Positions 1,918-54,989 are shown, numbered from the stretch's first letter. The stretch is DNA of 64,000 nt from an uncultured Acidobacteriota bacterium (GCA_963823995.1 CAWGNQ010000006.1:503685-567684), one strand, 5' to 3'. The notes: generated from the sequence alone by a model not told the origin. Program-made: numbers and translations.

Positions 1918-1962
1918 GTAGGACAACCTTCCGCGGTTGTCCCGGTGCCCGAAAGAACGGTC
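1918..1962 (+). repeat. Copy 1 of a ~46-bp palindromic element (GTAGGACAACC-N6-GGTTGTCC-CGGTGCCCGAAAGAACGGTC), 10 nt upstream of the start codon of the minus-strand GH gene
   Basis: Perfect 8-bp inverted repeat GGACAACC/GGTTGTCC with a 6-nt loop. About 90% identical to a second copy at 40342-40387. Confidence 0.6.
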
Positions 1963-2209
1963 CCGAGCTTCCCCACGCGCATACCTGGTTTTGATGCACC
2001 GTGCGGCTTTCTCGGTAGCCACTGCTTCGGGCAGCGAGAACGTTTCCCTACTCTAGGGCATTCTTCCATTCCGGTGTAAGATTGGGACCTTGCAACTTCG
2101 AGGTATCGCCAGGACGCGCGGGAACAAAACCGCGCTCGAATGGAGAAGAATCCGATGAAAGATTCTGTTCACTTGCGCAAGGCACGCTCTTACAGCCGCA
2201 CCCATCGTC

Positions 2210-4723
2210 TTGACACTCCTGATCATCCCTTGTTGGCCGCCGCCGGAGGTGTCCGGTCAGAACAACCAGCTCAAGCTCAACGACCAGGGGTACTTCGAGG
2301 AGACCGGTTTCAACGTGTTCGTTTTCAGCGATCAGTACAACGGGATGTTCTTCGACGAGAAGACGGCCGGAATCGAGCTGATCCATCATGGCGTCCGAAC
2401 GGCCACGGGCGGTGCCGTCAGGCTGAAGCCGACCCCCGAGCAATGGGATCAGATTCCGAAAGTCGTCGATCGAAAAGTGGACAAGGCGAGCAACACGATC
2501 GAAGTGACTCTCCGGTATGAAGCTTTCGACTTCGACTCCAGACTCGTCGTCACGCCGAAGGATCAGGGCGTCTCGATCAGCGTCTATCTCGACAAGCCTC
2601 TGCCTGCAGAGCTCGAAGGGCGCACCGGGTTGAATCTCGAGTTTCTGCCCTCCGCCTATTTCGAGAAGACTTATCTGATGGACGGTCAACCCGGAATCTT
2701 CCCGCTCTACCCATCCGGGCCCATGGTCGTGAAGCCCGCCGGTACGCAGATTCGCCAGTTCGAAGGCTACTCGACTTTCGACGATCGAGGGCGGGGCGAA
2801 TACGTGGAGCCTGATCCGATTGCGATCGGCAAGACTTTGGTGCTGGCACCTGAGGATCCGGAACGCCACATTGATATCCACAGTCTCACCGCCGACCTGA
2901 TGCTGCTGGATGGCCGCAATGTCGCGCAGAACGGATGGTTCGTCGTCCGTACCCTGATTCCTGCGAAGGCCACGGGCAAAGTCGCTGAATGGTATCTGCG
3001 GCCCCATACGATCCCCAGCTGGAAGCGGACCCCCGTCATCGGGTTCTCGCAGACCGGATACCATCCCGACCAGCAGAAGATCTCAGTGATCGAGTTGGAC
3101 CGGAACGACACCCCCCTGCCGAAGGCTTCGGTCTATCAGGTGACGGCCTCCGGCGACGAGGTCGAAAAGCTGACGGGTGACGTCAAGCCCTGGGGCGAGT
3201 ACCTTCGCTACCGGTACGCCACCTTCGATTTCAGCTCCGTCAAGGATCCCGGTCTCTACGTCATCAAGTATGGAGATCAGAAGACCGATCCGTTTCCCGT
3301 CGGGCCGGAGGTACATAAGGACATCTGGTACAAGACCCTCGATGTCTGGTTCCCCGTGCAGATGGACCATATGTTCGTCAATGAAGCCTATCGGGTCTGG
3401 CACGGTGCGGCGCATCTGGACGACGCGCGGCAGGCGCCCGTCAACATTCAGCATTTCGACGGCTATCGGATGGGGCCTTCGACCGAGACGAAGTACAAGC
3501 CGGGAGAGCACATTCCGGGACTGAACGTCGGTGGCTGGTTCGATGCCGGAGACTACGACATCCGGACAGGCTCTCATTCCAGTACGATCATGTACCTGGT
3601 CGATACCTGGGAGAATTTCAAACCGGAACGGGACGAGACGCTGGTCGATCAGGCGCGCCGTTTTGTCGACATCCACCACCCGGACGGAAAGGCGGACATA
3701 CTCCAGCAGATCGAGCAGGGCGCGCTGGCACTCGTCGCGCAACACCGGGCCTTCGGCCGGGCGATTCCGGGGATCATCGTTCCTCACCTGCATCAGTATC
3801 ATCACCTCGGTGACGGTTCGACTCAAACGGACGGTCTGCTGTACAACCCGGAACTGGAGCCTCATCAGACCGATGGGTTCAGTAGCGGCACGCCCGACGA
3901 TCGATGGGCCTTCACGAACAAGTCCGCTGCGAACAACTACGTGTCCAGCGCCGCTCTGGCGGCGGCCAGCCGCGCGCTGCGCGGTTTCAACGATCCACTG
4001 GCGGACGAGTGTCTGGCGGATGCTGAAAAGGCCTGGAACGACGAACGCGAGGCGCCTGCTTCCAACGAAGCCGGCTTCATGGCGGCTTTTCGCCAAAGTG
4101 CAGAATTGACGTCGACGCTTCAGTTGCTGATCGCGACGAAGGATCAGAGATATGCAGATCGCTTCGACGAGCTGATCTGGCCCGCCCTGGATCGTGCGCT
4201 GGGTCGAAGCATCTCGACCGCCGTGAGGGCGGTACCGTATCTCGATTCGGCGTTCAAGGAAAAGCTGCAGCCCTATGTCGTCAAATACAAAGACGAGGCC
4301 GCCGGCCTGTACAAGCAGAATCCCTACGGCGTTCCGATCACCACGGGCGGCTGGGCCGGCAATCAGACCGTCATCAACTGGTCTGTCACGAACTATCATC
4401 TCCACAAGGAGTTCCCCGAGATCTTCGGGCCTGAGTATGTCTACCGCGGACTGAATTACATCCTCGGTTGCCATCCGACCTCGAATGTCTCGTTTGTCTC
4501 TGGCGTCGGGACCCGTTCCAAGAAGATTGCCTACGGAAACAACCGCGCCGACTACACTTTCATTGCCGGCGGAGTGGTTCCGGGAGTGCTGGTCCTCAAA
4601 CCGGACTTTCCCGAGAACAAGCTGGACTGGCCCTTCCTCTGGGGTGAGAACGAGTATGTGATCGACATTTGTGCGGAGTACATCCTCCTCTCCAATGCGG
4701 TCGACCACCTGCTGGGCGAGTAG
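2210..4723 (+). CDS. Glycoside hydrolase family 9 (endoglucanase/glucosaminidase-like) with a long N-terminal domain; true start probably ATG 2155 followed by a 1-nt indel
   Basis: Carries the GGWFDAGDYDIRTG GH9 signature and a C-terminal WGENEYVIDICAEY motif. The listed ORF starts at a TTG with a poor N-terminus. The same frame stays open back to 2159 and encodes a signal-peptide-like KILFTCARHALTAAPIVLTLLIIPCW. ATG 2155, with a GGAGAAG Shine-Dalgarno 5 nt upstream, lies 1 nt out of frame, just before an AAA run. Confidence 0.8.
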   Translation: MTLLIIPCWPPPEVSGQNNQLKLNDQGYFEETGFNVFVFSDQYNGMFFDEKTAGIELIHHGVRTATGGAVRLKPTPEQWDQIPKVVDRKVDKASNTIEVTLRYEAFDFDSRLVVTPKDQGVSISVYLDKPLPAELEGRTGLNLEFLPSAYFEKTYLMDGQPGIFPLYPSGPMVVKPAGTQIRQFEGYSTFDDRGRGEYVEPDPIAIGKTLVLAPEDPERHIDIHSLTADLMLLDGRNVAQNGWFVVRTLIPAKATGKVAEWYLRPHTIPSWKRTPVIGFSQTGYHPDQQKISVIELDRNDTPLPKASVYQVTASGDEVEKLTGDVKPWGEYLRYRYATFDFSSVKDPGLYVIKYGDQKTDPFPVGPEVHKDIWYKTLDVWFPVQMDHMFVNEAYRVWHGAAHLDDARQAPVNIQHFDGYRMGPSTETKYKPGEHIPGLNVGGWFDAGDYDIRTGSHSSTIMYLVDTWENFKPERDETLVDQARRFVDIHHPDGKADILQQIEQGALALVAQHRAFGRAIPGIIVPHLHQYHHLGDGSTQTDGLLYNPELEPHQTDGFSSGTPDDRWAFTNKSAANNYVSSAALAAASRALRGFNDPLADECLADAEKAWNDEREAPASNEAGFMAAFRQSAELTSTLQLLIATKDQRYADRFDELIWPALDRALGRSISTAVRAVPYLDSAFKEKLQPYVVKYKDEAAGLYKQNPYGVPITTGGWAGNQTVINWSVTNYHLHKEFPEIFGPEYVYRGLNYILGCHPTSNVSFVSGVGTRSKKIAYGNNRADYTFIAGGVVPGVLVLKPDFPENKLDWPFLWGENEYVIDICAEYILLSNAVDHLLGE

Positions 4724-4791
4724 ATCCGGGCAGGCCGGCCGGATCGATGGCTGCCGGGGGCCGGGACCCCGGCAGCGCGGAGGAGATACCC

Positions 4792-6829
4792 ATGAAATCT
4801 GTTGCCTTTGATGGGGAGGTCCGGAAGGGGACCCCCGACCACGTACTGAGAGTTCTGTCTTTCGCTTTCCTGATCTTCGGGGTGTCGGTCCTGTTCGGAG
4901 CCTGCACCCGACCGTCGCCGGCTTCCGCCGCGGAAGAGACCGTCCAGCCCGGGATTGCCGTGCTCCTCGTCGACACCGACCGTGTCATGGGAGAGATCGA
5001 ACCGGGCGTCTACGGCCAGTTCCTCGAACATATCAACCATTCGGTCGTCGATGGTCTCTATGCCGAGCAGGTCCGGGGCCAGGGATTCGAAGGGAACGAC
5101 TTCGAGACCTACTGGCAGCCCTTTGCCGAGCAGGGCAGTCAGGGAAGCGCGGACGTTGTCGAAGGGCAGTTTCCCAACGGGGAGAAAGGTGTCAGGCTGG
5201 ACGTTTCCGGCGGCACGATCGGCATCCGGCAGCGGCGGATCGACCTCGAGGTGGATCACGACTATGACGGATCGGTCTGGCTCAAGCCCGAAGAGGGATC
5301 AGCGCAGGTTGTTCTTCGAGTGAAGGACTCCACCGGGGTCGTAGTGGCGCAGACGCCTCTCGAGACCCAAGGCTCGGATTGGCAGGAGGCGTCCTACCGC
5401 TTCTCGTGCCCGAAGGCCGACACCGAGGGGATGGTCGAGATCTCCGCCTCGGGAAGCGGGCGGGTGCTGGTGGACTTTCTGTCGATGATGCGGGCCGACG
5501 TGCGTAAAAACGGAATGCTGCGTCCCGACCTCCTCGAGGCACTTCAGGATCTCGAGCCACCGTTCGTCCGCTGGCCCGGCGGATCCTTCGCTTCCTTCTA
5601 CAACTGGAAAGACGGTATCGGCCCTCGGGTATCGCGCAAATACCGCCCCAATGAGCTCTGGGGCAATTACTCCGATTACAACGGATTCGGTGTGGACGAG
5701 TTTATGGAGTTGTGCCGACAGTTGGGGGCGGAGCCGTTGATCTGTCTCAGCGCGACGAGCACGAAGCCCGAGGAAATCCAGAACGCCATGGACTGGGTTC
5801 ACTATGTCAACGACCCGCCCACGACCGAGTGGGGGAAGAAGCGTGCGGAGAACGGCCACGCAGAGCCCTACAATGTGCGTTACTTCCAGATCGACAACGA
5901 GCCGATGAACCACGGCCTGACTCCGGATCAGTACGCTGAGATCGTGAACGTCTATGGGAGTCGGCTGAGGAAGATCGCTCCGGAAGCCAAGATCGTAGCC
6001 TGCGGACAGAAGCGGTCCAACGACATGGTGTGGAGCGAGAAGGTCATCGATGAAGCCGGAGAGAACTTCGACATCCTCGGTTGCCACAACTATGAATACG
6101 AGCCCGAGAACTTCGAGACGGGTCTCCGCCGGATCCAGGATTATCTGGTCAAACTCAGGGATTACGTCAGGGCGTCCGCGCATCCGGACATCAAGCTCGC
6201 CGTGCTGGAGTGGGGCCTGTGCCGGAGCTATGCCTGGCGTGCGGGGCTGCACACGGCGGGCAGTCTGATGATTTACGAGAAGCTGAGCCCCGAGCTGGAG
6301 ATGAGCTGTCCCGCGCTGCTGATGCGGAACACAACGGACGACCCGACCTGGACGGCCTTCATCTACCATGATCATGTCTCATGGTTCCCGGGATCGGGAT
6401 ACGTCGTGGAGAGAGCTGTTTCGGGATCACTTCGCGGAGAAGCATTTCGCATCCACGACCGGGACCTTTGCAGATATCGAGCATCGGAGCGAGTTCTTCG
6501 ATGGCATTGCTCAGATGAAACCCACTGACTGGAAACCCGGAACAGTCGACGCGATCGCTACGGGCAGTGCCGACGGCAAACGCATCGTCATCAAGGCGGT
6601 CAACTACGAGCCGACGAGCAACGTGCTGCTCACCCGGCTTCAGGGTTCCGGAGTGCCCGAGAATGCCGAAGTGAAAGTGTATTCGGTCTCCGCCGGTCTG
6701 GACGACGCCTGTTCGATTGAGAATCCTGGTCGGATTGCTCCTCACGAATCGAGCATGGCTTATTCGAAGGATCTGACGATCGACCTGGATCCCTACGAGG
6801 TGGTCGTGGTGGAGATTACGGCAAGATGA
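4792..6829 (+). pseudogene. GH51 alpha-L-arabinofuranosidase (lipoprotein signal LFGAC) interrupted by a +1 frameshift near 6408-6415; may be an assembly error
   Basis: Start is ATG 4792 with an AGGAGA Shine-Dalgarno 7 nt upstream; signal MKSVAFDG...VLFGACTRP. Catalytic domain shows VRWPGGSFASFYNWKDGIGP and QIDNEPMNHG. Frame 1 turns into nonsense after ...FIYHDHVSWFPGSGYVVE, while ORF 6368..6829 in frame 2 continues with ELFRDHFAEKHF...SADGKRIVIKAVN, the conserved GH51 C-terminal beta-sandwich. The junction sits in a GAGAGAG dinucleotide run. Confidence 0.75.
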
Positions 6830-7073
6830 GTGTCGAGTTTCGGGGGCGCGTTGCCCGAATGGCCTCAGCCGTGGTCTGGTTTGAAATCTCGGTCTACACG
6901 CGAAACCTCGGCGGTTCGATCTCTCGCAAAGCCGCAGAGAACGCAAAGGTTTTCTTTGTCTCTGAGTCCCTCTGCGACCTTGGGACCTTGGCGTGGAATC
7001 GGACCTGCAGGTCTCGACAGCTGGGCGACAAAGGTCAAGGCAGGGTCCAAAGGGTTTGGGCAAGACGCCCCCG

Positions 7074-7102
7074 GGTTCCGAGTTCCGAGGCTCAGAGTTC
7101 CT
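7074..7102 (+). repeat. TTCCGAG heptamer tandem repeat (gttccgag-ttccgag-gctcagag-ttcc) in the GH51/GH29 intergenic region
   Basis: Direct reading. Related copies lie at 15124-15146 (+) and 40485-40506 (-), each just 3-prime of a hydrolase gene on the gene strand. Confidence 0.5.
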
Positions 7103-7152
7103 TCGGCCGCCCATCGAAGAGCCGTGGGGGATGGGAGGACGTCCGCTTCCCC

Positions 7153-8676
7153 CTGGGAAAGCGGAAGCTTCGCGCCTCCGCTTCCGCGCTCCAAAGCGGC
7201 TTCGCCGCAGTATTGCTGCTGATCCGTCTCACTTCTCTCGGCTTTGCTCAAAATGCCGTGCCGCCGCCGCTTCCCGTGATGCCGATTCCCACTGAACGGC
7301 AGCTGGAATGGCAGCAGCGCGAGCTGGCCATGTTCGTCCATTTCACCGTCAACACCTTCACCAACCGGGAATGGGGAGACGGGACCGAGGATCCTGCAAT
7401 CTTCGATCCGTCGGAGCTCGACGTCGTCCAGTGGGTAAAGGCGGCCCGGGAATTCGGTTTTCGTTCCGTCGTCTTGACCGCAAAGCATCACGACGGCTTC
7501 TGTCTCTGGCCCAGTCGCTACACCGATCACTCGGTTCGCAGCAGCCCCTGGCGCGACGGTCGTGGAGACGTGGTGGGCGAACTCGCCCGGGCCTGCTCCA
7601 AGGCCGGGATCCGCTTCGGAGTCTATCTGTCACCCTGGGATCGTCACGAACCGAGCTACGGGAACGAGCTTCAATACAACCTGTACTATCTGGGACAGCT
7701 GCGCGAACTGCTGACGGGCTATGGACCGCTTTCCGAGGTCTGGTTCGACGGCGCTAAAGGTGAAGACGCCCGGGACATGAACTACTATTTTCAGACGTAC
7801 TGGGCCCTGGTCCGCCAGCTGCAACCGGGTGCCGTCATCTTCTCGGACGAAGGCCCCGACGTCCGCTGGATCGGAAACGAGCGCGGAAGCGCCGGCGAGT
7901 CCTGCTGGTCGATGCTGGATCGATCCAGAGTGTCGGTCGGGAAATCCGACACCGATTACCTGAATACGGGCGATCCCGACGGACCACAGTGGGTTCCTGG
8001 AGAAACGGACGTCTCGATCCGCAAAGGCTGGTTCTGGCATCCCGATCAGAAGCCGAAGTCGGTCGGGGAACTCGTTGACATCTACTTTCACTCCGTAGGA
8101 CGAAACAGCGTGCTGCTTCTCAACGTGCCTCCGGACAACCGGGGAAGGCTTCCTGAGCCCGACGTCCGCCGGCTTCGGGAATTTCGGAGCGCTCTGGATT
8201 CGATCTTCCGAAAGGACCTGGCTGCGGGGGCGACCGGTCGGGCCGGCAATGTACGGGGAGGGTCACCCGATTTCGGTGTGGAAAAGACGCTGGACGGTCA
8301 ACTGGAAACCTACTGGGCGACGGATGATGCTGCTCGATCGGCGTGGGTGGAATATGATCTGGGCAAACCCCGCCGCTTCAATGTCTGCCGGTTGCAGGAG
8401 CCGATCCAACTGGGTCAGCGCATCAGGCGCTATCGCCTCGAAGTCGAGACTCCGTCGGGCTGGAAGGCCGTTGCGGAAGGAACGACGATCGGGTACAAGA
8501 AGCTCGACCGATTCGAGCCGGTGGAGGCCCGACGTGTCCGGCTGCGGATTCTGGATTCCCGGGCTTGTCCGTTGCTCGCGGAGTTCGGGCTCTACTTCGA
8601 TCCCGGCCGGGGGACTCGTGCCGCTCGAGCAGCGGCTCGGGGCCTGAAGAAGACAACAGTCCGAGAGCTTCGATGA
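7153..8676 (+). CDS. GH29 alpha-L-fucosidase with C-terminal F5/8 type C (discoidin) domain; start codon unresolved
   Basis: Shows ERQLEWQQRELAMFVHFTVNTFTNREWGDGTE and VVLTAKHHDGFCLWPSRYTDHS (GH29), plus a C-terminal TYWATDD...discoidin-like region. The signal-peptide-like KRKLRASASALQSGFAAVLLLIRLTSLGFAQNA has no in-frame ATG or GTG; CTG 7153 and TTG 7211 are candidates. ATG 7131 is 1 nt out of frame immediately before a C5 homopolymer at 7149-7153. Confidence 0.75.
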   Translation: MGKRKLRASASALQSGFAAVLLLIRLTSLGFAQNAVPPPLPVMPIPTERQLEWQQRELAMFVHFTVNTFTNREWGDGTEDPAIFDPSELDVVQWVKAAREFGFRSVVLTAKHHDGFCLWPSRYTDHSVRSSPWRDGRGDVVGELARACSKAGIRFGVYLSPWDRHEPSYGNELQYNLYYLGQLRELLTGYGPLSEVWFDGAKGEDARDMNYYFQTYWALVRQLQPGAVIFSDEGPDVRWIGNERGSAGESCWSMLDRSRVSVGKSDTDYLNTGDPDGPQWVPGETDVSIRKGWFWHPDQKPKSVGELVDIYFHSVGRNSVLLLNVPPDNRGRLPEPDVRRLREFRSALDSIFRKDLAAGATGRAGNVRGGSPDFGVEKTLDGQLETYWATDDAARSAWVEYDLGKPRRFNVCRLQEPIQLGQRIRRYRLEVETPSGWKAVAEGTTIGYKKLDRFEPVEARRVRLRILDSRACPLLAEFGLYFDPGRGTRAARAAARGLKKTTVRELR

Positions 8677-8680
8677 GACC

Positions 8681-10453
8681 TTGCTGCGGTCCGTCTTGCA
8701 GGATCGCGAAGATCCGTCTATCGTCCTTCCCGAATTGAATGGTCATCCAGCTTCGAATCCGACGGACTCCGAACTGCATCAAGAGCCGTTCAGACGGTAC
8801 TCTCCCCACCTGGTCCCGGTTTTGCTCCTGGCATTTTTGACTCCGATCTTCCTGCATTCCTTCGTGTGTCTCTGGAATCTCGGTGCGACGCCGATCGAGG
8901 GGAGTGACCCCGGTCTCGTAATGTGGACGATCAGTTGGGTCAATCACGCGCTTCTGAATCAGGCGACCGACCTCTTTGCGGCGAACGCTTTCTATCCCTA
9001 TCCGGGAAGCCTCGCCTACTCCGAACACGGTTTCGGGGTAGCGATTCTGGTGAGCCCGTGGTACTGGTTTTCGGATAATCCCGTCGTTCCCTATAATCTG
9101 CTCCTGCTCTTCAGTTACTTCGGCTCCGCGGTCGGGATGTACTGCCTGGCTTTCTACTACACAGGTTCCAGGTGGGCCGCTTTTGTGAGCGGAACGATTT
9201 TCGGGTTCGCCTTCTTTCGGAGCCATCACTTCGGCCATCTGACCCTGATCTGTACAGCCTGGTTTCCACTCTCGATCTGGGCGCTCCACCGATTGCGCGA
9301 TCGGTTTTCCTGGAGACTCGGCGTCGTCTGGGTGGCGGTGACCGCCATGCAGTGCCTGAGCAACTGGTACATCGCCGTCATGCTGGCGTTGACGCTCGGA
9401 TGCTTGACGCTCTTCCTCTGCCTTCGCTCGCCTCGACCGTGGACTTTCCTGCTTCGTATGGCTCCCCTGGCTGGCGCGATTGCGTTGATCATCCTCCCAT
9501 TCGCCCGGCCCTACATGATGCATTCCGTCGACCACAGCATGGAGGAGGGCACGGTTTTTTCCGCCGATGCGATCGATTACGTGACTCCACCCTGGAATAC
9601 CATTGCGGGTCAGTTGCTGGGCAACCAGGGTCACTGGATCTGGGGAGAGAGGACGATCTATCTCGGTCTGGCGGCCTTGCTCCTTGCCGCTGCCGGTCTG
9701 CTTTCGAATCGGCACCGGAACATCGCCTGGTTCTACCTCGGACTGGGAGCCCTCGGCTTCGTGTTCTCCCTGGGACCACGTATGCCCGGTGGGACGCTTC
9801 TGCCGCTGGCGCTGGTCTACAAGGCAGTTCCGTTTCTTGGCCAGTTCCGTGCGACGGCCCGATTCGCCTTCCTCGTCGCCTTCGCGGTCTCGGTCCTCGC
9901 CGGCTTCGCGGCCGCGAAGCTGCGATCGCGACCTGGCCTGCTCGCGACACTGATCATGATCATTCTGGTCGAGTACTTTCCTGTCGGACTCGGCTTCAGA
10001 CCCTGTTCAGCTAAGGCATTTGCGCCAAGGCCCGTCGATTCCTGGCTGAGGGAGCGGAACCCGGAGCCGGTCGGCCCGCCGGGTGATCGCCGACCCCGCC
10101 AGCGCGAACGAAAGGTCGTCCTCGAACTGCCCGACTACAGCGGGACCGATCAATGGCCGAAGGAGAGCCTCTACATGCTCTACTCCACCCAGCACTGGAT
10201 GAATCTGGTCAACGGCTATACACGCTTCTATCCTGCGGACTATGCTGCGGATTTCAGAGCCTACGACGGTTTCCCCGACCCCGGTTCGATCCGGTTCATG
10301 CGACGGCGAGGGATCGACTACCTGGTGGTTCATCTTCAGGCGTATGACGAGCAGAGAAGGGAGCAGTTCCTTTCGGCGCCAGGCCTCGTCCGGCGATTCG
10401 GCGATGACTGCGTCTTCGAAATTTCCGCCCTGCAGCCGTCCGGGGGTGAGTAG
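8681..10453 (+). CDS. Polytopic integral membrane protein, putative GT-C-type glycosyltransferase (YfhO/PMT-like)
   Basis: 590 aa with more than 10 predicted hydrophobic helices (LVPVLLLAFLTPIFL, LLLLFSYFGSAVGMYCLAFYY, etc.) and a soluble C-terminal domain. Starts 4 nt after the GH29 stop. Family assignment is an inference. Confidence 0.45.
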   Translation: MLRSVLQDREDPSIVLPELNGHPASNPTDSELHQEPFRRYSPHLVPVLLLAFLTPIFLHSFVCLWNLGATPIEGSDPGLVMWTISWVNHALLNQATDLFAANAFYPYPGSLAYSEHGFGVAILVSPWYWFSDNPVVPYNLLLLFSYFGSAVGMYCLAFYYTGSRWAAFVSGTIFGFAFFRSHHFGHLTLICTAWFPLSIWALHRLRDRFSWRLGVVWVAVTAMQCLSNWYIAVMLALTLGCLTLFLCLRSPRPWTFLLRMAPLAGAIALIILPFARPYMMHSVDHSMEEGTVFSADAIDYVTPPWNTIAGQLLGNQGHWIWGERTIYLGLAALLLAAAGLLSNRHRNIAWFYLGLGALGFVFSLGPRMPGGTLLPLALVYKAVPFLGQFRATARFAFLVAFAVSVLAGFAAAKLRSRPGLLATLIMIILVEYFPVGLGFRPCSAKAFAPRPVDSWLRERNPEPVGPPGDRRPRQRERKVVLELPDYSGTDQWPKESLYMLYSTQHWMNLVNGYTRFYPADYAADFRAYDGFPDPGSIRFMRRRGIDYLVVHLQAYDEQRREQFLSAPGLVRRFGDDCVFEISALQPSGGE

Positions 10454-10538
10454 AAGCTCGGTGCGGTCTTCATGAGCGCTCCAGGGCCTGACGAGTCTGT
10501 GGATTGCGGCTAGAATCGAGGGTCAGGAGGTAGGCGAA

Positions 10539-13281
10539 GTGTCAGATGGAGACCAGAAAGTGCGGAGAGCGGGATCTAGAAGTACGGCCGTCAGACGTCG
10601 GGTCGCCTGGAGGCCGTTGCTCTGGGTGATCGGAGCGCTGCTGCTCCTTGTTTTGGTCGCGGTGGCCTGCCACCGGTCTCCGAATCTCATCCGTTCAACC
10701 GACCCGGTTGCGTTCTCCCGCAGAGACCATGTCGTGTTGCCGGTGAGCCAGATTCTGAGCCCCGCGGGCGCTCAGGTCGAGCTTCCGGGCCTGCGCCCCC
10801 AGGCTCTGGCCCTGAGCCCGGACGGGCGGGTCCTCCTCACGGCGGGCAAAACGCCTGAGATCATCGTGATCGATCCGGACACCGCCGCCGTCAGACAGAG
10901 GGTTCCTCTGCCCGCCGCTGGACAGGATGTGCCGGCGGATGCGGTCTCCACGCATTTCCTGCAGCCCGACGAAGAGGGTCAGCTGAGCTACACGGGGCTG
11001 GTCTTCTCGCCTGACGGCGGGAGGGCCTACATGTCCGACGTCAACGGCAGCGTCAAGGTGTTTCGGGTTTCGGAGCCGGGAAGCCTGGAACCGCTTCGGT
11101 CGCTGCCGCTTCCTGCCACCGGGCTGGAGCGGCGAGGCGAGCCCATTCCTTCGGGTCTTCGGGTCTCGGAGGATGGGAAGCGCCTCTTCGTCGTGCTGAA
11201 CCTGACCAACCGGCTGGTCGAGCTCGATGCCGCGAGCGGGCGGATCCTGCGCAGGTTTGAGGTCGGAGTCGCCCCGTTCGACGTGATCCTGGCCGATGGA
11301 AAGGCGTATGTGAGCAACTGGGGAGGCCGCCGACCTGAGGCCGACTCCGTCGTCGGTCCGGCCGGGCGGGGCTCCGAGGTGCGCGTCGACCCGAAACGCT
11401 ACGTGGCCTCGGACGGATCGGTCACGGCCATCGATCTCGAGGCCGGTCGCGTGGTTCGGGAGATACCGGTCGGACTGCATTCCTCGGGCCTGGCTCTGAC
11501 GCCGGACCGGCGCTTCCTCGCCGTTGCGAACGCAGCCAGTGACTCCGTTTCGGTGATAGACACAAGAAGAGACGAGGTCGTCGAGACCATCTCCCTGCGT
11601 TGGCAGCCGAGGGACTACTTCGGAGCGAGCCCCAACGCGCTCACCTTCGACTCGACGGGACGGAAGCTCTTCGTCTGCAACGGAACCCAAAACGCCGTTG
11701 CCGTCGTCTCCTTCGATCCGGGACACTCGACCCTGGAGGGAATGATCCCGGTTGGATGGTTTCCGGGGGCGATCCTGTATGACGGCGCTCGAAACGCACT
11801 CGTCGTGGCCAATATCAAGGGGCTCGGTTCCGGACGCCGGACATTCGGACCGGAGGAAGAGGGGTTCAATTCCCGCCAGTACTTCGGTTCGATTTCGGTG
11901 GTCCCGGTCCCGGACGATCGCCAGCTGGTCCGCTACACGAAGACCGTGCGGCGAACTTCCGACGGGAGATCGATCGAAGCCGCACAGTTGCCGGCTCGCC
12001 CGGGACGGGCCGCCCGTCCCGTCCCCGAGCGGGTGGGCGAGCCTTCGGTCTTCAAGCACGTCGTCTACATCATCAAAGAGAATCGTACCTATGATCAGGT
12101 GCTCGGGGATCTCGCCCGGGGCAATGGAGATCCGCGGCTCTGCGTCTTCGGGGAACGGGTGACGCCCAACCTGCACAAAATCGTCAAGGAGTTCGTCCTG
12201 TCTGGACAACACCTACTGTTCGGGGATCCTGAGTGCCGACGGGCATCAGTGGTCGACGACCGCAATGGCAACCGACTATATGGAGAAGTCGTTTGCCGGA
12301 TTCCCTCGAAGCTATCCGGACGGGATGAGCGACGACGACGTCGATGCGCTGGCCTATGCGCCGACCGGATTCATCTGGGACAACGTTCTGGAGCAGGGGA
12401 AGACGCTTCGCGACTACGGTGAATTCTCGATCGCGGAGATCGGATGGACCGATCCGTGGCGGATGCCGCCGCCGACTTTCATCGACTTCTACCGGGACTT
12501 CATCAACAAGACGGGGTTGACCCGGGTGGGGAGTCGACCCGCCATCGAATCTCTGCGTCCCTATCTCGACAGGGAGGTGGGTTGGAGCCTGGATGTTCCG
12601 GAGTTCTCCGGGCCGACCGGTTCATCAAAGAGCTCGGCGAGTTCGAGAAGAGCGGCCGGTTTCCGGATCTCGTCATCATCTGTCTGCCCAACGATCACAC
12701 TTCGGGAACCAAGGAAGGGATGCCGACTCCCGAGGCTCATGTGGCCGACAACGATCTGGCCTTCGGCCGGATCGTCGAGGCGATCAGTCACAGCCGCTTC
12801 TGGAAGGAGACCTGTATCTTTGCGATCGAGGACGATCCGCAGGACGGCTGGGATCATGTCAGTTCCTTCCGGACGACCGCTTACGTGATCAGTCCCTACA
12901 CCCGACGCGGCGCGGTCGTCGGCACGCAATACAACCAGCCCGGCATCCTGCGCACGATCGAACTGATCCTGGGCCTTCCTCCGATGAACCAGATGGATGC
13001 GGCCGCTACGCCGTTGTTCGACTGCTTTCAGGACAAGCCCGACTTCACTCCGTACGATGCCGTCCCGAACAACATCCCGCTCGACCGGCTGAATCCTCCC
13101 GCCAGAGCTGGAAGGACAGTCGTATGCGAGGTATGCGGAGTTGTCGGCGACGCTGCCGTTGGACGAAGTGGACCGGTGCCCGGAAGATCTTCTCAACAGG
13201 ATCCTGTGGCATGCACGGAAAGGGCCGGACGCTCCCTATCCGGAATGGGCAACGACGCCGAACTCCGACGAGGACAAATGA
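10539..13281 (+). pseudogene. YVTN beta-propeller plus phosphoesterase (PF04185-type acid phosphatase / phospholipase C family) protein broken by three single-nt indels; may be an assembly error
   Basis: The N-terminal half is intact (YVTN-type propeller repeats: SPDGRVLLTAG, SEDGKRLFVVLN, TPDRRFLAVANAASDSVSVID), followed by VVYIIKENRTYDQVLGDL (phosphoesterase). The protein continues across ORFs 10539..12422 (frame 3), 12265..12888 (frame 1), 12444..13304 (frame 3), and an unlisted frame-1 tail ELEGQSYARYAELSATLPLDEVDRCPEDLLNRILWHARKGPDAPYPEWATTPNSDEDK ending with TGA at 13279-13281. Junctions lie near 12201 (extra T in ctgtctg), 12613 (missing C in gggccgac) and 13104. Confidence 0.7.
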
Positions 13282-13490
13282 GGGATTCCGAATTTCCATT
13301 TTGACTGGGCACGCAGTTCGCGCCGGAAGGAGAGTCAGGAGTCGACGGCCGTGCAGCGGGTCCCTCACTTCGTTCCGGCTCTGATGCGGCCAATGGAAAA
13401 TCTCGACGCTCTGCCGTCCTTGCGTTGCCGCGCGCTGCCCGCTATTCTCAGATCGATCGTTCGCCCATTCTTCGAAGAAGGGGGCCTTTC

Positions 13491-15092
13491 GTGAGAGTAC
13501 TTTCCGTATCGTTCTTGTCGCTTCGATCCTGATCCTTGCCGGCTGTTCCACTCAGCAACAGGCCGTCGGGACCCCTCCCAACATTCTGTTCATCATGTCG
13601 GACGATCATGGCGAGCAGGCGATTTCGGCGTATGGGAGTCAATTGATCCAGACACCGAATATCGACCGAATCGCCAACGAGGGCGTCCGCTTTACGAGCA
13701 GCTTCGTCACGAACTCGTTCTGCGCCCCCAGCCGCGCCGTCCTTCTGACGGGCAAGTACAGCCACATCAACCGGCTTCGAGACAATCGAGATCAGTTCGA
13801 CGGTAGTCAGATGACTTTCCCGAAGCTGCTCCAGAAGGCCGGATATCAGACGGCGATCGTAGGGAAATGGCATCTCAAGACGGATCCGACGGGCTTCGAT
13901 CTCTGGAAGATTCTGATCGATCAGGGCGAGTACTACAATCCCGACTTCATCGAGATGGGTGAGAAGGTCCATGAGACCGGATACGTCACGGATTTGATCA
14001 CGGACTTCGCTGTCGACTTCCTCGATCATCGAGATCCGAACAAGCCCTTCTGTCTCCTTCTTCACAACAAGGCGCCCCATCGAAACTGGATGCCGAACGC
14101 AAAATACATGGATCTGTATGACGAGCGAGACGATCCCCGAGCCGGAGACGTTCTGGGACGACTATAAGGGCCGGATCGCCGCCCAACAGCAGGACATGCG
14201 CATCGCAGGGATGTACCTGAGCATGGACATGAAGCTCTTCGAGGACGCCTACGGCAAGGAAACCGGAACGGGCGGTCAGGCCGGCTTTCCTGCGGGAATG
14301 GTCTGGAAGATGGAATACAACCGGATGAACGACGAACAGAAAGCCGCCTGGAACGCGCACTACGATAAGGTCAATGAGGAGTACAAGAAGAATCCGCCGA
14401 CGGGAAAGGCCCTGACCGAGTGGAAGTACCAGCGTTTCATGAAGGACTACCTCCGCTGCATCGCCTCGGTGGATGATAATGTGGGTCGAGTTCTCGACTA
14501 CCTCGACGAACACGATCTCGCGAAGAACACGATCGTCGTCTACACCTCGGATCAGGGCTTCTACCTGGGCGAGCATGGCTGGTTCGACAAGCGCTTCATG
14601 TACGAGGAGTCGTTCGAGATGCCGCTCATGATCCGCTATCCGGCCGAGATCGAGGCCGGCCAGGTGTCGGACGATCTGGTCATGAACCTCGATTTCGCAC
14701 CCACCTTCCTCGACTATGCCGGCGTCCCGGTTCCCGAGCAGATGCAGGGAGTTTCCCTGCGGCCGTTGATGGAGGGATCCAGGCCGGACAACTGGCGCGA
14801 GGCCGTCTACTACCACTACTACGAATACCCGCATGGGTGGCACAACGTGAAGCGGCACTACGGAGTCCGGACCGACCGCTACAAGCTGATCCACTTCTAC
14901 AATGATATCGACGTGTGGGAGCTCTATGACCTGCAGAAAGACCCGCACGAGTTGCACAACGTCTACGGACAGCCCGAGTACGCGGACGTCCAGGCCGACC
15001 TCCACGCTAAGCTGAAGGAACTGCAGCAGCAGTACAGGGACACGAACCCGGAATCGGACGAGCTCCCGCCGGTCGAAGTTCCGGGGAAATAG
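13491..15092 (+). pseudogene. Sulfatase (arylsulfatase / N-acetylglucosamine-6-sulfatase-like lipoprotein) with two frame-disrupting indels; may be an assembly error
   Basis: ORFs 13595..14167 (frame 2: FIMSDDHGEQAISAYG...CAPSRAVLLTGKY) and 14118..15092 (frame 3: ...YTSDQGFYLGEHGWFDKR...) are two parts of one sulfatase. The junction lies near 14128-14140 in a gagcgagacga run. Upstream, frame 2 encodes a lipobox signal, ...IVLVASILILAGCSTQQQ, with no start codon. GTG 13491 (Shine-Dalgarno AAGGGGG 6 nt upstream) gives MRVLSVSFL in frame 3 and would join it by a 1-nt shift near 13517-13522. Confidence 0.7.
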
Positions 15093-15123
15093 CGCTGGGG
15101 GCGAGGGCCTGTGTCTGATGTCC

Positions 15124-15146
15124 AAGTTCCGGGTTCCGAGTTCGGT
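15124..15146 (+). repeat. TTCCGAG-type heptamer repeat (agttccg-ggttccg-agttcgg), 30 nt after the sulfatase stop
   Basis: Direct reading; same motif family as 7074-7102 and 40485-40506. Confidence 0.45.
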
Positions 15147-15198
15147 CGACACTGCGGCCTCGACAGACGGTTGGCGAGATTGTGGAAGGTCGAGGGTT

Positions 15199-15227
15199 TT
15201 GACATATTTATGATTCCTCTATATGCT
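15199..15227 (+). promoter_or_regulatory. Sigma70-type promoter: TTGACA, 17-nt spacer, TATGCT; predicts a leaderless vapB transcript starting near ATG 15235
   Basis: TTGACA at 15199-15204, a 17-nt AT-rich spacer, then TATGCT at 15222-15227. It sits in a short low-GC island just upstream of vapBC. Confidence 0.55.
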
Positions 15228-15234
15228 TTTATGC

Positions 15235-15480
15235 ATGAGGACCACCATTGACATCGATGACGATCTCCTTCGTGAGGTGAAGCGCTACGCGGTGGAGAAC
15301 GACCGGACGATGCGCGCGGTCATCGAGGAGGCGCTCCGTTCCGATCTGGTCAGGAGGAAACGGCGCCGGGATGCGCTCGAGGTCGACGAAGTGATCACGT
15401 TCAAAGGACGTGGTACGAAACCAGGCGTCGATCTGGACAGTACAGCGGACTTGCTCGATCTGATGGAGTCGGGTCGGTGA
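15235..15480 (+). CDS. vapB: Type II antitoxin, ribbon-helix-helix VapB family
   Basis: MRTTIDIDDDLLREVKRYAVENDRTMRAVIEEALRS is a classic VapB/RHH N-terminus. Its stop overlaps the vapC GTG start (GTGA overlap). Confidence 0.8.
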   Translation: MRTTIDIDDDLLREVKRYAVENDRTMRAVIEEALRSDLVRRKRRRDALEVDEVITFKGRGTKPGVDLDSTADLLDLMESGR

Positions 15481-15905
15481 CTCTCGTCGACGTGAATGTG
15501 CTCATCTACGCCCACCGCGAAGAGAGCCCTCGGCATCAGGAGTACCGGGATTGGCTCCGGTCATTGTGGGCCGGACCCACCGATTTCGGGGTTTCGGAGC
15601 TGGTGCTCAGCTCGTGCCTGCGGGTTTTGACTCATCCCAAAGTCTTCGATCCCCCAACCCCCCTCGATCGCGCTCTGTCCTACGTGAATCAGGTGCGATC
15701 ACAGCCGAACTGCATTGTCATTACTCCCGGCAACCGGCACTGGGACATCTTCTGTGAACTGTGCGCCAATGCCGAGGTCAAGGGCAATCTCGTCGCCGAC
15801 GCCTACCTGGCCGCGCTGGCCATCGAATCGGGCTGTGAATGGCTGACGACCGATCGGGACTTCGCCCGATTTTCCGGTCTGCGTTGGAGACACCCGCTGG
15901 CTTGA
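15477..15905 (+). CDS. vapC: Type II toxin, PIN-domain ribonuclease VapC
   Basis: 142 aa; MTLVDVNVLIYA...LVADAYLAALAIESGCEWLTTDRDFARF. The PIN-domain acidic residues are present (D5, E?, D99, D118-like). Confidence 0.8.
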   Translation: MTLVDVNVLIYAHREESPRHQEYRDWLRSLWAGPTDFGVSELVLSSCLRVLTHPKVFDPPTPLDRALSYVNQVRSQPNCIVITPGNRHWDIFCELCANAEVKGNLVADAYLAALAIESGCEWLTTDRDFARFSGLRWRHPLA

Positions 15906-16070
15906 TGCCGAGGCAACCCGCAGTCGGCTTGGCGGATGCTCGGGCACGCCGCCCCGGGGCGCCGCCACGACGGGCTCGGCGTCGCAGCCGGCTGATCTTC
16001 GGGACTGGACTTTGCGCCGAGCACCCAACAGAATGGTCGAAGAAGTCGATCCAGTCGCATCGGAGGTCAC

Positions 16071-17744
16071 ATGAAAGGTTTAGGCAAACATCGCAGTCGC
16101 ATTGTCACCGAAGGTCGAAATCGAGCCGGAGCCCGGGCCTTTTTCAAGGCCGTGGGCTTCTCCCACGAGGATCTGTCCAAGCCGATCATCGGCATTGCCA
16201 ATACCTGGATCGAGACCATGCCCTGCAACATCCACCTGCGCGACCTGGCCGCGAAGGTCAAGGAAGGGGTCCGTGCGGCAGGTGGTACGCCCATGGAATT
16301 CAACACGATCGCCATCAGCGACGCGATCACCATGGGGATCGAGGGCATGAAGGCGTCGCTCGTCAGTCGGGAGGTCATTGCCGATTCGATCGAACTGGCC
16401 GGTCGCGGTTATCTGTTCGACGCCATCGTGGCACTGGTCGGTTGCGACAAGACGATACCCGGCGCCGGTATGGCTGCGATCCGCCTGGACGTACCCAGCC
16501 TCGTGCTCTACGGAGGGACGATCTTACCGGGCCACTACCATGGGCGCGACGTCAACATCCAGGACGTCTTCGAGGCGGTCGGGGCCACCGCCGCCGGGAG
16601 GATGTCCGAGGACGAGCTGTACGAACTCGAGGAAGTCGCCTGCCCTGGGCCGGGAGCCTGCGGTGGGCAGTTCACGGCCAACACGATGGCCACTGCCATG
16701 GAGTTTCTCGGTCTTTCCGCGCTGGGAACGGCCAGCACTCCTGCGGCGGATCCGAAGAAGTCCGATGTGGCCGTCCGGTGCGGAGAGCTGATCATCGGAA
16801 TGCTCGAACAGGAGCTGACGCCGAGCCGGATCTTGACGCGGGGAGCTTTCGAGAACGCAATCGCTGGTGTCTCCGCCACCGGGGGCTCGACCAACTCCGT
16901 ACTGCACTTGTTGGCTCTGGCGCGGGAGGCAGGCATCCCGCTCGTCATCGAGGACTTCGACGCGATCAGTCGGAAGATTCCCCTATTGGCCGATCTCAAA
17001 CCATGGGGACGGTACCTGGCGGCCGATCTCTATCGGGCCGGAGGGATCGAGCTGGTCGCGCAACGGCTGGTCGAAGGCGGCTTCGTCGACGGGACTCAGT
17101 TGACTCCCACCGGGCGAACACTCGCGGAGGAGGCGGCGCATGCCTCGGAAACACCAGGTCAGGACGTCGTCCGTGATCTCGAGCATCCGATCAAACGTTC
17201 GGGAGGACTGGTCGTCCTGAAGGGGAATCTCGCGCTCGAAGGGTGCGTTCTGAAGGTCACGGACCGGCGAAAGACGCATCATGTGGGCCCGGCCAGGGTC
17301 TTCGACCGGGAAGAAGATGCCATGGCGGCCGTGACGTCGGATTCGATTCGCCCCGGCGACGTGGTGGTGATCCGCTACGAAGGACCCCGTGGAGGCCCCG
17401 GCATGAGGGAGATGCTCGGTGTGACGGGTGCCATTGTCGGAGCCGGGCTGGGCGAAGAAGTCGCTCTGATCACGGACGGACGCTTCAGCGGGGCGACGCG
17501 AGGACTGATGATCGGGCACGTCGCTCCGGAAGCGGCCCGGGGCGGGACGATCGCACTCCTGCAGGAGGGAGATAAGATCGAGATCGACATCGATTCGCGT
17601 ACGATCAGCGTGCAGGTTTCCGAAGCGGAACTGCAGGTGCGTGCGAAGGCCTGGAAGGCTCCGGGACCACATTACCGGGGCGGAGTCTTCGCGAAGTACG
17701 CGAGGTCGGTGTCCTCCGCCTCCGAGGGCGCGATCACCGTCTGA
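16071..17744 (+). CDS. ilvD: IlvD/EDD-family dehydratase (dihydroxy-acid dehydratase or sugar-acid dehydratase)
   Basis: 557 aa; shows CDKTIPG, ACPGPGACGGQFTANTM, GGSTNSVLHLLALA and RFSGATRG, the 2Fe-2S/4Fe-4S dehydratase signatures. GGAGG Shine-Dalgarno 6 nt upstream of the ATG. The genomic context (CAZymes for arabinose and fucose) leaves a pentonate-dehydratase role possible. Confidence 0.8.
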   Translation: MKGLGKHRSRIVTEGRNRAGARAFFKAVGFSHEDLSKPIIGIANTWIETMPCNIHLRDLAAKVKEGVRAAGGTPMEFNTIAISDAITMGIEGMKASLVSREVIADSIELAGRGYLFDAIVALVGCDKTIPGAGMAAIRLDVPSLVLYGGTILPGHYHGRDVNIQDVFEAVGATAAGRMSEDELYELEEVACPGPGACGGQFTANTMATAMEFLGLSALGTASTPAADPKKSDVAVRCGELIIGMLEQELTPSRILTRGAFENAIAGVSATGGSTNSVLHLLALAREAGIPLVIEDFDAISRKIPLLADLKPWGRYLAADLYRAGGIELVAQRLVEGGFVDGTQLTPTGRTLAEEAAHASETPGQDVVRDLEHPIKRSGGLVVLKGNLALEGCVLKVTDRRKTHHVGPARVFDREEDAMAAVTSDSIRPGDVVVIRYEGPRGGPGMREMLGVTGAIVGAGLGEEVALITDGRFSGATRGLMIGHVAPEAARGGTIALLQEGDKIEIDIDSRTISVQVSEAELQVRAKAWKAPGPHYRGGVFAKYARSVSSASEGAITV

Positions 17745-17745
17745 C

Positions 17746-20076
17746 TCAGGAGAGCGGGGCGCTGAGAGATGCGGTGCTGACTTCCGTGCCGGCGCAGGGA
17801 AACAGGATCGAGAACGTCGTTCCTCGGCCCGGTGCGCTCTCCACCTGAATGGAGCCGTTGTGCTGTCGGACGATGCCGTAGACGGTCGACAAGCCCAGAC
17901 CCGCGCCCCTGCCAAAGGCTTCGGTGGTGAAGAACGGGTCGAAGATCCGTGAGACCGTGTCTGGATCCATTCCCCGGCCGGAATCGGACACCCGAACTTC
18001 GACGTATGTGCCCGGGTCCAGCTCCGAAATCGTCTTGGAGTCGGATGCGTCCAGGCGGCGATTCCGCACGGAGAGGCGGAGTTGCCCACCGTTCGGCATC
18101 GCATTTCGCGCATTGGAGACGAAATTCTCGAGTACCCGCTCGATCAACTGGGTGTCGGCCAGGACCGGAGCGATACCGACGCCGTATTCATACTCCTGCC
18201 GGATTCCCTCACCCGCCAGGCGGGACAGGTTCGGTTGTAGGGCCGAGACGAACTCGGAGAGATCCACCCGGCGGAGATCGAGCAGCAGCTTTCGGCTGAA
18301 GGCGAGCAGTTTCTCGACCAGCCTGGCCGCCCGCAGCCCGGCCATCCGAATCTCCTCGAGATCCTCCTGGATTCCGGCTCCGCTGCGATCCGCCGCGAGC
18401 GCAAGCTCGGTCCGACCATTGATGATCATCAGGAGGTTGTTGAAATCATGGGCAACCCCGCCGGCAAGGTTGCCGACGGCCTCCATCTTCTGCGAGTGCC
18501 GAAGTTGGCTCTCGAGCCGCCTTCGTTCCTCGATGTCTCGAATAACGAGAAGACCCCGCTCTTCTCCGCCGACCGATGATCTCTGGGCCAGCATCTCCGC
18601 CCAGAAACTCGATCCGTCGCAGCGGCGCACGTGGAGTTCGTGCAGGGACGGCGCCGGACTGTGGAGGGCCGTCTCGACCCGCTCGGACCCCTCCTGGACC
18701 AGATCGCAGATGCCCTTCGTCACCAGACCTTCGCAGGAGCATCCCAGAAGCCGGGCCGCCGCCTCGTTGCTCTGGACGATGCGTCCCGTTTCGCCTTCGA
18801 CCAGCAGGATCCCTTCGTCGACGGCATTGAAAATCTCCCTGTAGATCGCTTCCGATCGCAGCAGTCTCTCTTCCGCCCGGACGCGCCGCTCGGCCAGTGA
18901 CAGCGCTTCGCGCGAGAGCAGGACGATCACGAAGGTGCCGGCCAGTACGAAGAGCCCGAGGGCGAGATCCGGATAATTCGGGCGGTCTCCCAGGAGGTAG
19001 CCTCCCAAGCCGAGCACAGGCAGGGAGAAGAGCATCAGATTATCGCGAAACTGCAAGACGGGCAGATAGCCGACGAAGGTGATGGCGATCCAGGCCAGAG
19101 GGCTGAGATCGACTCCGAACAACCAGCCGAAGAACAAAACCGCCGCAAAGCGCAGGCGCGCCACACGCCACTGACCCAGCCGCCTGGATGCGAACTCGTC
19201 CGCCAGGACCAGACCGCAAAGGACGAGGTAGAAGATCAGCACTCTGTCGTCGATCCAGCCCGAGTGAGCCACCAGATCACACAGAAAGGACAGCGAGATC
19301 AACGAGAAACCGGCTTGCCTGAGGACCGACCCGCGGATCAGTTCGGACTCTCGGTTCGGCGGCCCGGGAGCCGACATTCGAATCAGCAGAAACAGACCGG
19401 TGGCGAAAAGCACAGCCAGGACCCCCAGGGAACCTGCGTTGTAACCGTCCCACTCGAACCGAAACTCGCGAATGTCCAATTTGAATCCGTCGGAGGGAGG
19501 GAAGGTGAAGGCCACACTCCGAACCAGGGATGTTTGCAGGACTCCGTCCTGGAGGTCCGGATCGAGATTCGGATCTTCGGACGGTTCGAGATGGTCCAGA
19601 GGGAACTCGGTGCGGGTCCACCCCTGATCGGGGCCGCGAAGCGGGCCGTTGAAGATCTCCCCGTACTCGACATCATGCCGGTGGGTTCGTTCCCGAAGCG
19701 TGACTACGAACTCGGGGATCGTTCCATGGCCGCGCCAATCCAGCGTCAGGCGGGCGCCGAAACGGGGGGCGCCGGACAATTCCGTGACACCGAAGCCGAG
19801 GTACTGGTCCGACCTGGGAATCCCGACCTCCAGGAAGCGCTCGCCCGTTGCCGGCGTCTCCCGGAAGGTCAACGAAGAGTCCTGGAGCAGGTAGAGATAG
19901 ATCGGATACTGCTCGGTGAAGGCACCCAACACGTAACTGCCGGGGTCGATGATCGCCGCCGATCCGCCGGGGGGAAAGAAGAGGATCAGGACGATGATCG
20001 TCACCAGAGGCAGCAGCGCGAAGACTGCAACAACGGTGCGCAGGAGTCCGTTCATGCTCGACAATGCTTGAGACAT
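17746..20076 (-). CDS. Sensor histidine kinase with N-terminal 7TMR-DISM-type extracellular and 7TM module, PAS, HisKA and HATPase domains; no cognate response regulator in the window
   Basis: 776 aa; signal peptide plus a ~200 aa periplasmic domain, then 7 hydrophobic helices, a PAS region (EGILLVEGETGRIVQSNEAAARLLG), the H-box HSQKMEAVGNLAGGVAHDFNN and the ATPase boxes NARNAMPNGG / SGRGM / GLGL. Confidence 0.8.
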   Translation of the reverse strand: MSQALSSMNGLLRTVVAVFALLPLVTIIVLILFFPPGGSAAIIDPGSYVLGAFTEQYPIYLYLLQDSSLTFRETPATGERFLEVGIPRSDQYLGFGVTELSGAPRFGARLTLDWRGHGTIPEFVVTLRERTHRHDVEYGEIFNGPLRGPDQGWTRTEFPLDHLEPSEDPNLDPDLQDGVLQTSLVRSVAFTFPPSDGFKLDIREFRFEWDGYNAGSLGVLAVLFATGLFLLIRMSAPGPPNRESELIRGSVLRQAGFSLISLSFLCDLVAHSGWIDDRVLIFYLVLCGLVLADEFASRRLGQWRVARLRFAAVLFFGWLFGVDLSPLAWIAITFVGYLPVLQFRDNLMLFSLPVLGLGGYLLGDRPNYPDLALGLFVLAGTFVIVLLSREALSLAERRVRAEERLLRSEAIYREIFNAVDEGILLVEGETGRIVQSNEAAARLLGCSCEGLVTKGICDLVQEGSERVETALHSPAPSLHELHVRRCDGSSFWAEMLAQRSSVGGEERGLLVIRDIEERRRLESQLRHSQKMEAVGNLAGGVAHDFNNLLMIINGRTELALAADRSGAGIQEDLEEIRMAGLRAARLVEKLLAFSRKLLLDLRRVDLSEFVSALQPNLSRLAGEGIRQEYEYGVGIAPVLADTQLIERVLENFVSNARNAMPNGGQLRLSVRNRRLDASDSKTISELDPGTYVEVRVSDSGRGMDPDTVSRIFDPFFTTEAFGRGAGLGLSTVYGIVRQHNGSIQVESAPGRGTTFSILFPCAGTEVSTASLSAPLS

Positions 20077-32404: not shown

Positions 32405-32439
32405 CGTCGACTCCTTTGACTCTGTACCCGGAGGCGGGG

Positions 32440-54982: not shown

Positions 54983-54989
54983 GAGTCGT

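Follow-up and report, generated by a model that had tools for sequence, protein, structure and literature searches.

The window analysed here is a stretch of 64,000 nucleotides (nt) from an uncultured Acidobacteriota bacterium (GCA_963823995.1, CAWGNQ010000006.1:503685-567684). Near its beginning lies a cluster of genes for glycan degradation, four of which are broken by eight single-base insertions or deletions (indels): a GH9 endoglucanase-like gene; a GH51-type alpha-L-arabinofuranosidase gene; a gene fusing a YncE-type beta-propeller to a phosphoesterase; and a sulfatase gene. These indels are probably consensus artefacts, generated from mixed strains in a long-read metagenome assembly, rather than lesions in the organism, and the four genes are presumably intact in the cells. 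All eight lie within three short segments in which the window differs densely from a sister assembly, the differences are concentrated at third codon positions, and k-mer contigs break at a segment edge.

Eight Events in Four Genes

Gene order was established through Pfam scans of stop-to-stop open reading frames (ORFs). Events were placed by tblastn with the ORFs of relatives, a custom frameshift-aware protein-to-DNA aligner, and nucleotide alignments. Four intact syntenic orthologues provided the frame references: L001, an Acidobacteriota metagenome-assembled genome (CAVRSV010000025) in which the whole cluster is syntenic and intact, at 66-90% amino acid identity; L002 and L003, further syntenic loci that are partial; and L095, described below. 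(L001, L002, and L003 come from a scan of one genome per species.) The tblastn matches switch frame inside the GH51, phosphoesterase fusion, and sulfatase genes. The amino terminus of GH9, a protein with 85% amino acid identity to its L001 counterpart, was compared with L001 and with the sister assembly.

Eight single-base edits restore ORFs of 855, 719, 914, and 533 codons, each with its terminal stop alone and each encoding a protein with 76-83% amino acid identity to intact orthologues. With these edits in place, none of the four genes has a nonsense codon, a truncation, or an inserted insertion sequence. The Sulfatase profile then matches in one stretch (1-301 of 301, 187 bits), as does the Phosphoesterase profile (278 residues). 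The fusion of YncE and phosphoesterase is itself the family norm: it is one ORF of about 900 codons in thousands of relatives, and normally a single ORF among 80 loci retrieved from JGI metagenomes with the phosphoesterase amino-terminal part as query.

A preliminary description, made from the sequence alone, had reported at least eight frame-disrupting indels in the first 15 kb. A count of eight is confirmed, and most of the inventory holds: one in GH51 (+1 at 6413), two in the sulfatase gene (one internal, at 14126, and one at the start, at about 13504), and a GH9 start displaced by one nucleotide at a run of A residues (an extra A, 2158-2160). The frameshift-aware alignment to homologues that it proposed has been run as described above, and confirms events in the window. 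The phosphoesterase gene, however, has four indels (12201, 12602, 13099, and 13131) instead of the reported three, the last two only 32 nt apart; and the claim that the GH29 start is out of frame is not established, since an in-frame ATG stands at 6826 and a protein of 616 residues is called in two assemblies. As the preliminary description predicted, annotation pipelines have fragmented these genes. Public gene calls on the source contig (1,533,905 bp, NCBI and ENA) are, in gene order, 824 residues for GH9 (P0133, signal peptide lost), 578 and 104 for GH51 (P0130 and P0132), 627, and 190 and 324 for the sulfatase.

Other candidates were discarded. The aligner also placed events at 8600 and 8682 (before DUF6311), 10535 (before the phosphoesterase gene), and 13358 (before the sulfatase gene), all of which reflect non-coding ORF extensions aligned upstream of starts. 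Three overlapping or adjacent ORF pairs that might have been read as frameshifts (33115-36099 with 35615-37312; 46903-49479 with 49486-52095; and 52131-53327 with 53120-54982) were resolved by gene calls on three other assemblies, which show either distinct genes or antisense shadow ORFs.

The events are far from uniformly spread. Under uniform placement, the probability that all eight would fall in the first 15.1 kb is 1e-5. Between 14.4 and 64 kb there is no window-specific indel relative to the sister assembly or to Logan k-mer contigs, in agreement with the clean downstream region first described.

Three Divergent Segments

The sister assembly is contig_15880 of ENA analysis ERZ25039500 (911 kb), which was retrieved by exact-protein look-ups with IlvD and GH29. 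Over most of the window the two sequences are nearly identical: 0 differences over 2232-5501; 6 substitutions over 6717-11887; 1 substitution over 14394-27744; 16 substitutions and 0 indels over 19161-40699; and 2 substitutions with 1 indel over 44991-64000. The differences are concentrated instead in three hot segments (A, B, and C; Table 1), which together span 4.0 kb and contain 246 of 256 substitutions and 53 of 54 indel columns, with indels of both signs.

Every one of the eight window events falls within these segments (P = 4e-10 under uniform placement), and this explains their regional confinement. The GH29 and DUF6311 genes, which lie between hot segments, are untouched by frameshifts.

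The sister assembly is broken in the same genes, but mostly at other sites. Five of the eight window events are absent from contig_15880 (2160, 6413, 12602, 13131, and 14126), and three are common to both (12201, 13099, and 13504). Contig_15880 in turn has about 21 frameshifts of its own: 1 in GH9, 11 in GH51, 4 in the phosphoesterase gene (including a -1 at about 12575), and 5 in the sulfatase gene. The two assemblies err in opposite directions at 13131, where a base is missing from the window and an additional one stands in contig_15880.

Outside the hot segments, only two indel differences were found. At 45057, an extra base in contig_15880 shortens a Poly_export gene product from 402 to 342 residues, and the other assemblies covering this position read as the window does. 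At 52030, Logan contig L090 lacks a C, which lengthens a hypothetical gene product from 869 to 927 residues; contig_15880 and the Logan contig from the other run match the window.

The intergenic region between the phosphoesterase and sulfatase genes (window 13282-13490; L006 6918-7325; L001 14590-14860) differs in structure between strains. In contig_15880 it is about 274 nt longer than in the window, the extra DNA lying between inverted arrays of tandem 7-8-nt units (GATTTGA.../...GAAAATCG). Similar arrays occur in L001, whereas the window retains a remnant only.

Table 1. Events, divergent segments, and genes in the first part of the window.
Feature	Position	Strand	Description
Event 1, GH9	2158-2160	+	+1, extra A (AAA, AA expected) directly 3' of ATG 2155; start out of frame; absent from contig_15880
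Event 2, GH51	6413	+	+1, extra G, GAGA[G]AG; frame 1 to 2; absent from contig_15880 and L001
Event 3, phosphoesterase fusion	12201	+	+1, CTG[T]CTG; common to contig_15880; within an invariant stretch of 170 nt
Event 4, phosphoesterase fusion	after 12602	+	-1, GGA^GTT; contig_15880 has C at 12603
Event 5, phosphoesterase fusion	13099-13100	+	-1, CCTCC^CGCC; common to contig_15880; adjoins a 2-nt substitution difference
Event 6, phosphoesterase fusion	13131-13132	+	-1, GAGG^TATG; contig_15880 +1 at the same site (GAGGAATATG)
Event 7, sulfatase	~13504 (13504-13505)	+	net -1 (or +2) in CTTTCCGT, four codons past GTG start 13491; common to contig_15880
Event 8, sulfatase	14126	+	+1, GAG[C]GAG; absent from contig_15880 and L001
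In-frame lesion, phosphoesterase fusion	12570-12576	+	three 1-nt deletions, sum -3, no frame shift
Possible ninth event	7131-7153	+	frame-3 ATG 7131, then C5 run 7149-7153; removal of one C would give a good signal peptide in frame with GH29
Hot segment A	1933-2231		GH106-GH9 intergenic region and GH9 signal peptide; substitutions and indels dense relative to contig_15880
Hot segment B	5502-6716		carboxyl-terminal half of GH51; 134 substitutions, 87 at third codon positions; 11 frameshifts in contig_15880
Hot segment C	11888-14393		phosphoesterase half of the fusion gene, intergenic region, and amino-terminal half of the sulfatase gene
GH106	start ATG at 1908	-	Pfam scan
GH9 endoglucanase-like gene	2155-4723	+	CelD_N and Glyco_hydro_9 (Pfam); 855 residues when corrected
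GH51-type alpha-L-arabinofuranosidase gene	4792-6829	+	ASD1_dom and Alpha-L-AF_C (Pfam); 719 residues when corrected
GH29 alpha-L-fucosidase and F5/8 type C gene	6826-8676	+	Pfam; 616 residues as called
DUF6311/YfhO-like membrane protein gene	between GH29 and the YncE/phosphoesterase fusion		Pfam
Bifunctional YncE-type beta-propeller/phosphoesterase (alkaline-phosphatase-family) gene	10539-13281	+	Pfam; 914 residues when corrected
Sulfatase and SGSH_C gene	13491-15092	+	lipoprotein signal peptide, intact CAPSR motif; 533 residues when corrected
VapB/PIN pair, then IlvD	3' of the sulfatase gene		Pfam scan

Selection on the Corrected Frame

The substitutions that separate the two assemblies in the four broken genes number 225, and they are distributed over codon positions of the corrected frame as 49/22/154 (chi-square p = 7e-29). 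Third positions thus account for 68%, and about two thirds of the changes are synonymous. This bias marks the substitutions as genuine haplotype differences under purifying selection, not noise. The even spread over codon positions that accompanies relaxed selection was not observed for these substitutions.

The same bias persists downstream of the frameshifts common to both assemblies: 9/2/38 in the sulfatase gene and 6/3/22 in the phosphoesterase gene. The corrected frames were therefore translated while the haplotypes diverged, and the shared lesions cannot predate that divergence.

K-mer Contigs and the Search for Intact Copies

Logan contigs from two sequencing runs cover parts of the window. 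Those of ERR11594398 carry the window's alleles, and those of ERR11523667 carry the alleles of contig_15880. Over 17.35-57.9 kb, ERR11594398 is represented by contigs 15.3 and 25.3 kb long, which show 6 substitutions and no window-specific indel; over the first 17 kb, only short contigs were retrieved. Two of its contigs, L096 (8026-11887) and L094 (14583-16226), are both 100% identical to the window. This identity outside the hot segments implies that the window consensus is accurate elsewhere.

The first variable site of hot segment C is 11888, and L096 stops just one base short of it, at 11887; Logan contigs of both runs start exactly at 14583. A de Bruijn graph breaks at variable sites when two alleles are present in one sample. 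The breaks in these k-mer contigs thus point to probable heterogeneity within the sample at the hot segments.

Logan contigs from one or both runs also break at 8025/8026, 14582/14583, 16226-16232, and about 32600, where the long-read contigs agree. These breaks hint at further haplotypes that are invisible in either consensus.

Searches for an intact copy from the same species or strain gave uniformly negative results. With the phosphoesterase amino-terminal query, the best match in JGI metagenomes has 65% amino acid identity; with the corrected full-length phosphoesterase, the best among 5.8 billion proteins has 81% identity, so that no intact same-species copy was found. A query of 160 residues centred on event 12201, designed for short read-through fragments, returned nothing above 85% identity, and the look-up of a guessed partial Logan gene product inside the hot segments gave no match. 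One apparent candidate, the intact Logan protein P0128 of 916 residues (L095), belongs to another species (81.6% nucleotide identity) and was retained as a frame reference only.

How the Indels May Have Arisen

A mechanism can be proposed in which co-occurring strains share an identical backbone but carry alleles about 8-10% divergent in three kilobase-scale segments of the glycan-degradation cluster. The assembler would have merged these haplotypes into one sequence, and polishing against the resulting mixture of reads would then have introduced single-base insertions and deletions at or near variable positions. At some sites both alleles of a variable position, or neither, may have been written into the consensus. 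For example, contig_15880 has C and L001 has G at GAG[C]GAG (14126), and contig_15880 has C and L002 has T at GGA^GTT (12602).

The platform and pipeline appear to be Flye-type, probably Nanopore: the name contig_15880, the ENA analysis record, and the closest relative fit a Nanopore-only Flye assembly with one Medaka round, as performed on Danish soils. Those soil metagenomes, with notable microdiversity, were treated in just this way (PMC12313526), and consensus indels are known to produce frameshifts below about 40x coverage (PMC9262707).

Several points weigh against this explanation. Events 12201, 13099, and 13504, along with the possible GH29 event discussed below, are identical in two assemblies of apparently different samples, and 12201 lies in a stretch of 170 nt with no variation between the two contigs; these shared events could be either recurrent systematic errors or real, very recent lesions. 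The evidence is at the level of two consensus sequences and k-mer contigs. The platform and pipeline of the source contig are deduced from contig naming and context, and no publication found is linked to ERZ25039500, ERR11594398, or ERR11523667, so attribution to the Danish long-read soil project is an inference only. An intact same-strain copy is missing from the collections searched, and the pattern of both alleles or neither is an interpretation of few sites.

Weighing the Alternatives

One alternative is ordinary homopolymer or low-coverage read error, spread by a local dip in coverage and independent of strain variation. The preliminary description leaned in this direction, with sequencing or assembly error at homopolymers and short repeats. 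Its general verdict of error is supported, in the form of collapsed strain heterogeneity, but its homopolymer basis fails. The GH9 event is indeed a length change from AA to AAA, and 13099 and 13504 touch runs of 2-3 nt; these are the only sites (the latter two only possibly) with the appearance of a run-length miscall. The eight sites touch runs of at most 3, 1, 1, 1, 3, 2, 2, and 1 nt, in line with the background distribution. Such contexts argue against simple run-length error and fit a consensus drawn from a mixed pile. Low-coverage Nanopore bins do keep indels (PMC9262707), yet a second assembly would not show a random dip over these same three segments, nor would errors from such a dip coincide, in two samples, with dense synonymous variation and k-mer contig breaks at the segment edges. 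This explanation is extremely improbable.

Scarcely more credible, and still very unlikely, is genuine decay, in which the polysaccharide-utilisation island is pseudogenised in the species and every indel in both contigs is real. The preliminary description had raised this possibility. Several genes of one functional cluster are affected in both assemblies, and indels dominate here as in many real pseudogenes; frameshifts in neighbouring glycoside hydrolase, sulfatase, and phosphoesterase genes are what decaying polysaccharide-utilisation loci display. However, decay would require that one lineage gained about five independent frameshifts and its counterpart about 18, all in segments that also differ by synonymous changes, while flanks of more than 50 kb gained only about 30 substitutions and one indel. 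It would also require indels of opposite sign at one site (13131), and would have to leave the intervening GH29 and DUF6311 genes untouched and the unaffected neighbours identical. Nonsense codons, truncations, deletions, and insertion-sequence insertions, which real pseudogenes would be expected to accumulate, are absent after correction; the substitutions are filtered by selection rather than relaxed; and five of the eight lesions are not found in the sister assembly.

A mixed case deserves more attention, although it too is unlikely: the shared events (12201 and 13099 in the phosphoesterase gene, 13504 at the sulfatase start, and perhaps the C5 run) would be real recent inactivations, and the five window-specific events artefacts. 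In its favour, both assemblies carry these events in identical form, each with flanking alleles that match a different run, and an artefact of a mixed pile is less expected in the locally invariant stretch around 12201. Against this stand the third-position bias of the corrected frame, which continues downstream of the shared frameshifts; the probable use of the same technology and pipeline for both assemblies, so that systematic errors can recur; and the location of 13099 and 13504 within 1-7 nt of variable sites.

A related and slightly less probable reading gives the mosaic itself a biological meaning. On this view, recombination would have driven allelic diversity in the glycan-degradation cluster of co-occurring Acidobacteriota strains: kilobase-scale segments, 8-10% divergent and filtered by selection, would interrupt an identical backbone in the GH106/GH9 promoter region, GH51, the sulfatase, and the phosphoesterase fusion. 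The indels common to both assemblies, at 12201, 13099, and 13504 and perhaps in the C5 run (7149-7153), would have inactivated the phosphoesterase and sulfatase genuinely and very recently in this lineage.

Programmed ribosomal frameshifting and phase-variable tracts likewise change frame within a gene, but were rejected on sequence context: no site has a slippery heptamer or a repeat tract of more than 3 nt. Moreover, several shifts of both signs occur in one gene here, and the orthologues are unshifted.

Consensus artefacts from mixed strains thus remain the favoured explanation, and they resemble two known kinds of error. As with consensus indels of the Nanopore/Flye/Medaka type, single-base indels split intact conserved genes and public annotation is fragmented; exactly such gene-splitting errors have been described (PMC9262707), as has polishing aimed at them (PMC12313526). 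Classic indels of this type, however, are tied to homopolymers, genome-wide, and related to coverage, whereas those described here are non-homopolymeric and confined to 4 kb of strain-variable segments within an otherwise clean 64-kb window. Collapsed-haplotype artefacts offer a second parallel: an identical backbone is broken by divergent segments; a de Bruijn contig breaks at a segment edge; and two assemblies yield different mosaics and indels over the same segments. The difference is that collapse is here deduced from two consensus sequences and k-mer contigs.

The GH29 Start

The GH29 gene is intact as called, and its product of 616 residues is identical in both assemblies. Its in-frame ATG at 6826 overlaps the GH51 stop as ATGA (6826-6829), a layout also present in L002, which suggests translational coupling if this upstream start is real. 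However, the coding signature of 6826-7140 is weak, and a frame-3 ATG at 7131 lies before the C5 run listed in Table 1 as a possible ninth event. The sequence of 7131-7153 is the same in both assemblies. A frameshift at the C5 run is accordingly a possible but unproven addition to the eight.

A hairpin-bearing motif, GCGGAAGC...GCTTCCGC...CCAAAGCGGCTTCGCCGCAG, lies at 7156-7210 (L006 7195-7244) and overlaps the putative GH29 signal-peptide region. Further copies lie at the GH29 amino terminus of L003 and L095 and within the additional intergenic DNA of contig_15880. The motif may represent either a conserved leader or a small repeated element.

The Remainder of the Window

The window has a GC content of about 60% and is Acidobacteriota-like. 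Between the sulfatase and IlvD genes, a VapB antitoxin/PIN-domain toxin pair (15223-15905) is identical in both long-read contigs and two Logan contigs. Further downstream, on the minus strand (30946-32799), a rhodanese gene precedes genes for an encapsulin shell protein (Linocin_M18, 268 residues) and an EncFtn-like cargo protein (119 residues); this stretch looks like an operon for an encapsulated-ferritin nanocompartment. The final part (44000-64000) contains a large exopolysaccharide or capsule cluster, with Poly_export, an ABC-2 transporter, several GT2/GT4 glycosyltransferases, asparagine synthase, and MBOAT, which adjoins Pel9A-like/CBM6, GH127, GH2, and GH5 genes.

Consequences for Annotation

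The fragments stand in public protein collections as separate gene products. For this Acidobacteriota genome they distort pseudogene estimates, sulfatase inventories, and the number of carbohydrate-active enzymes counted. The problem may extend beyond it: a protein search revealed many fragments of 170-280 residues from the YncE/phosphoesterase family, whose members have about 900, on long (40-770 kb) ENA contigs, a hint that long-read metagenome assemblies commonly break up this family by frameshifts.

The frameshifts themselves are most likely not a biological feature of the organism. Their interest lies in annotation hygiene, and in the diagnostic that they provide: a cluster of frameshifts, together with dense synonymous differences to a sister assembly and breaks in k-mer contigs, is a flag for collapsed strain variation, as opposed to decay, that can be raised free of reads.

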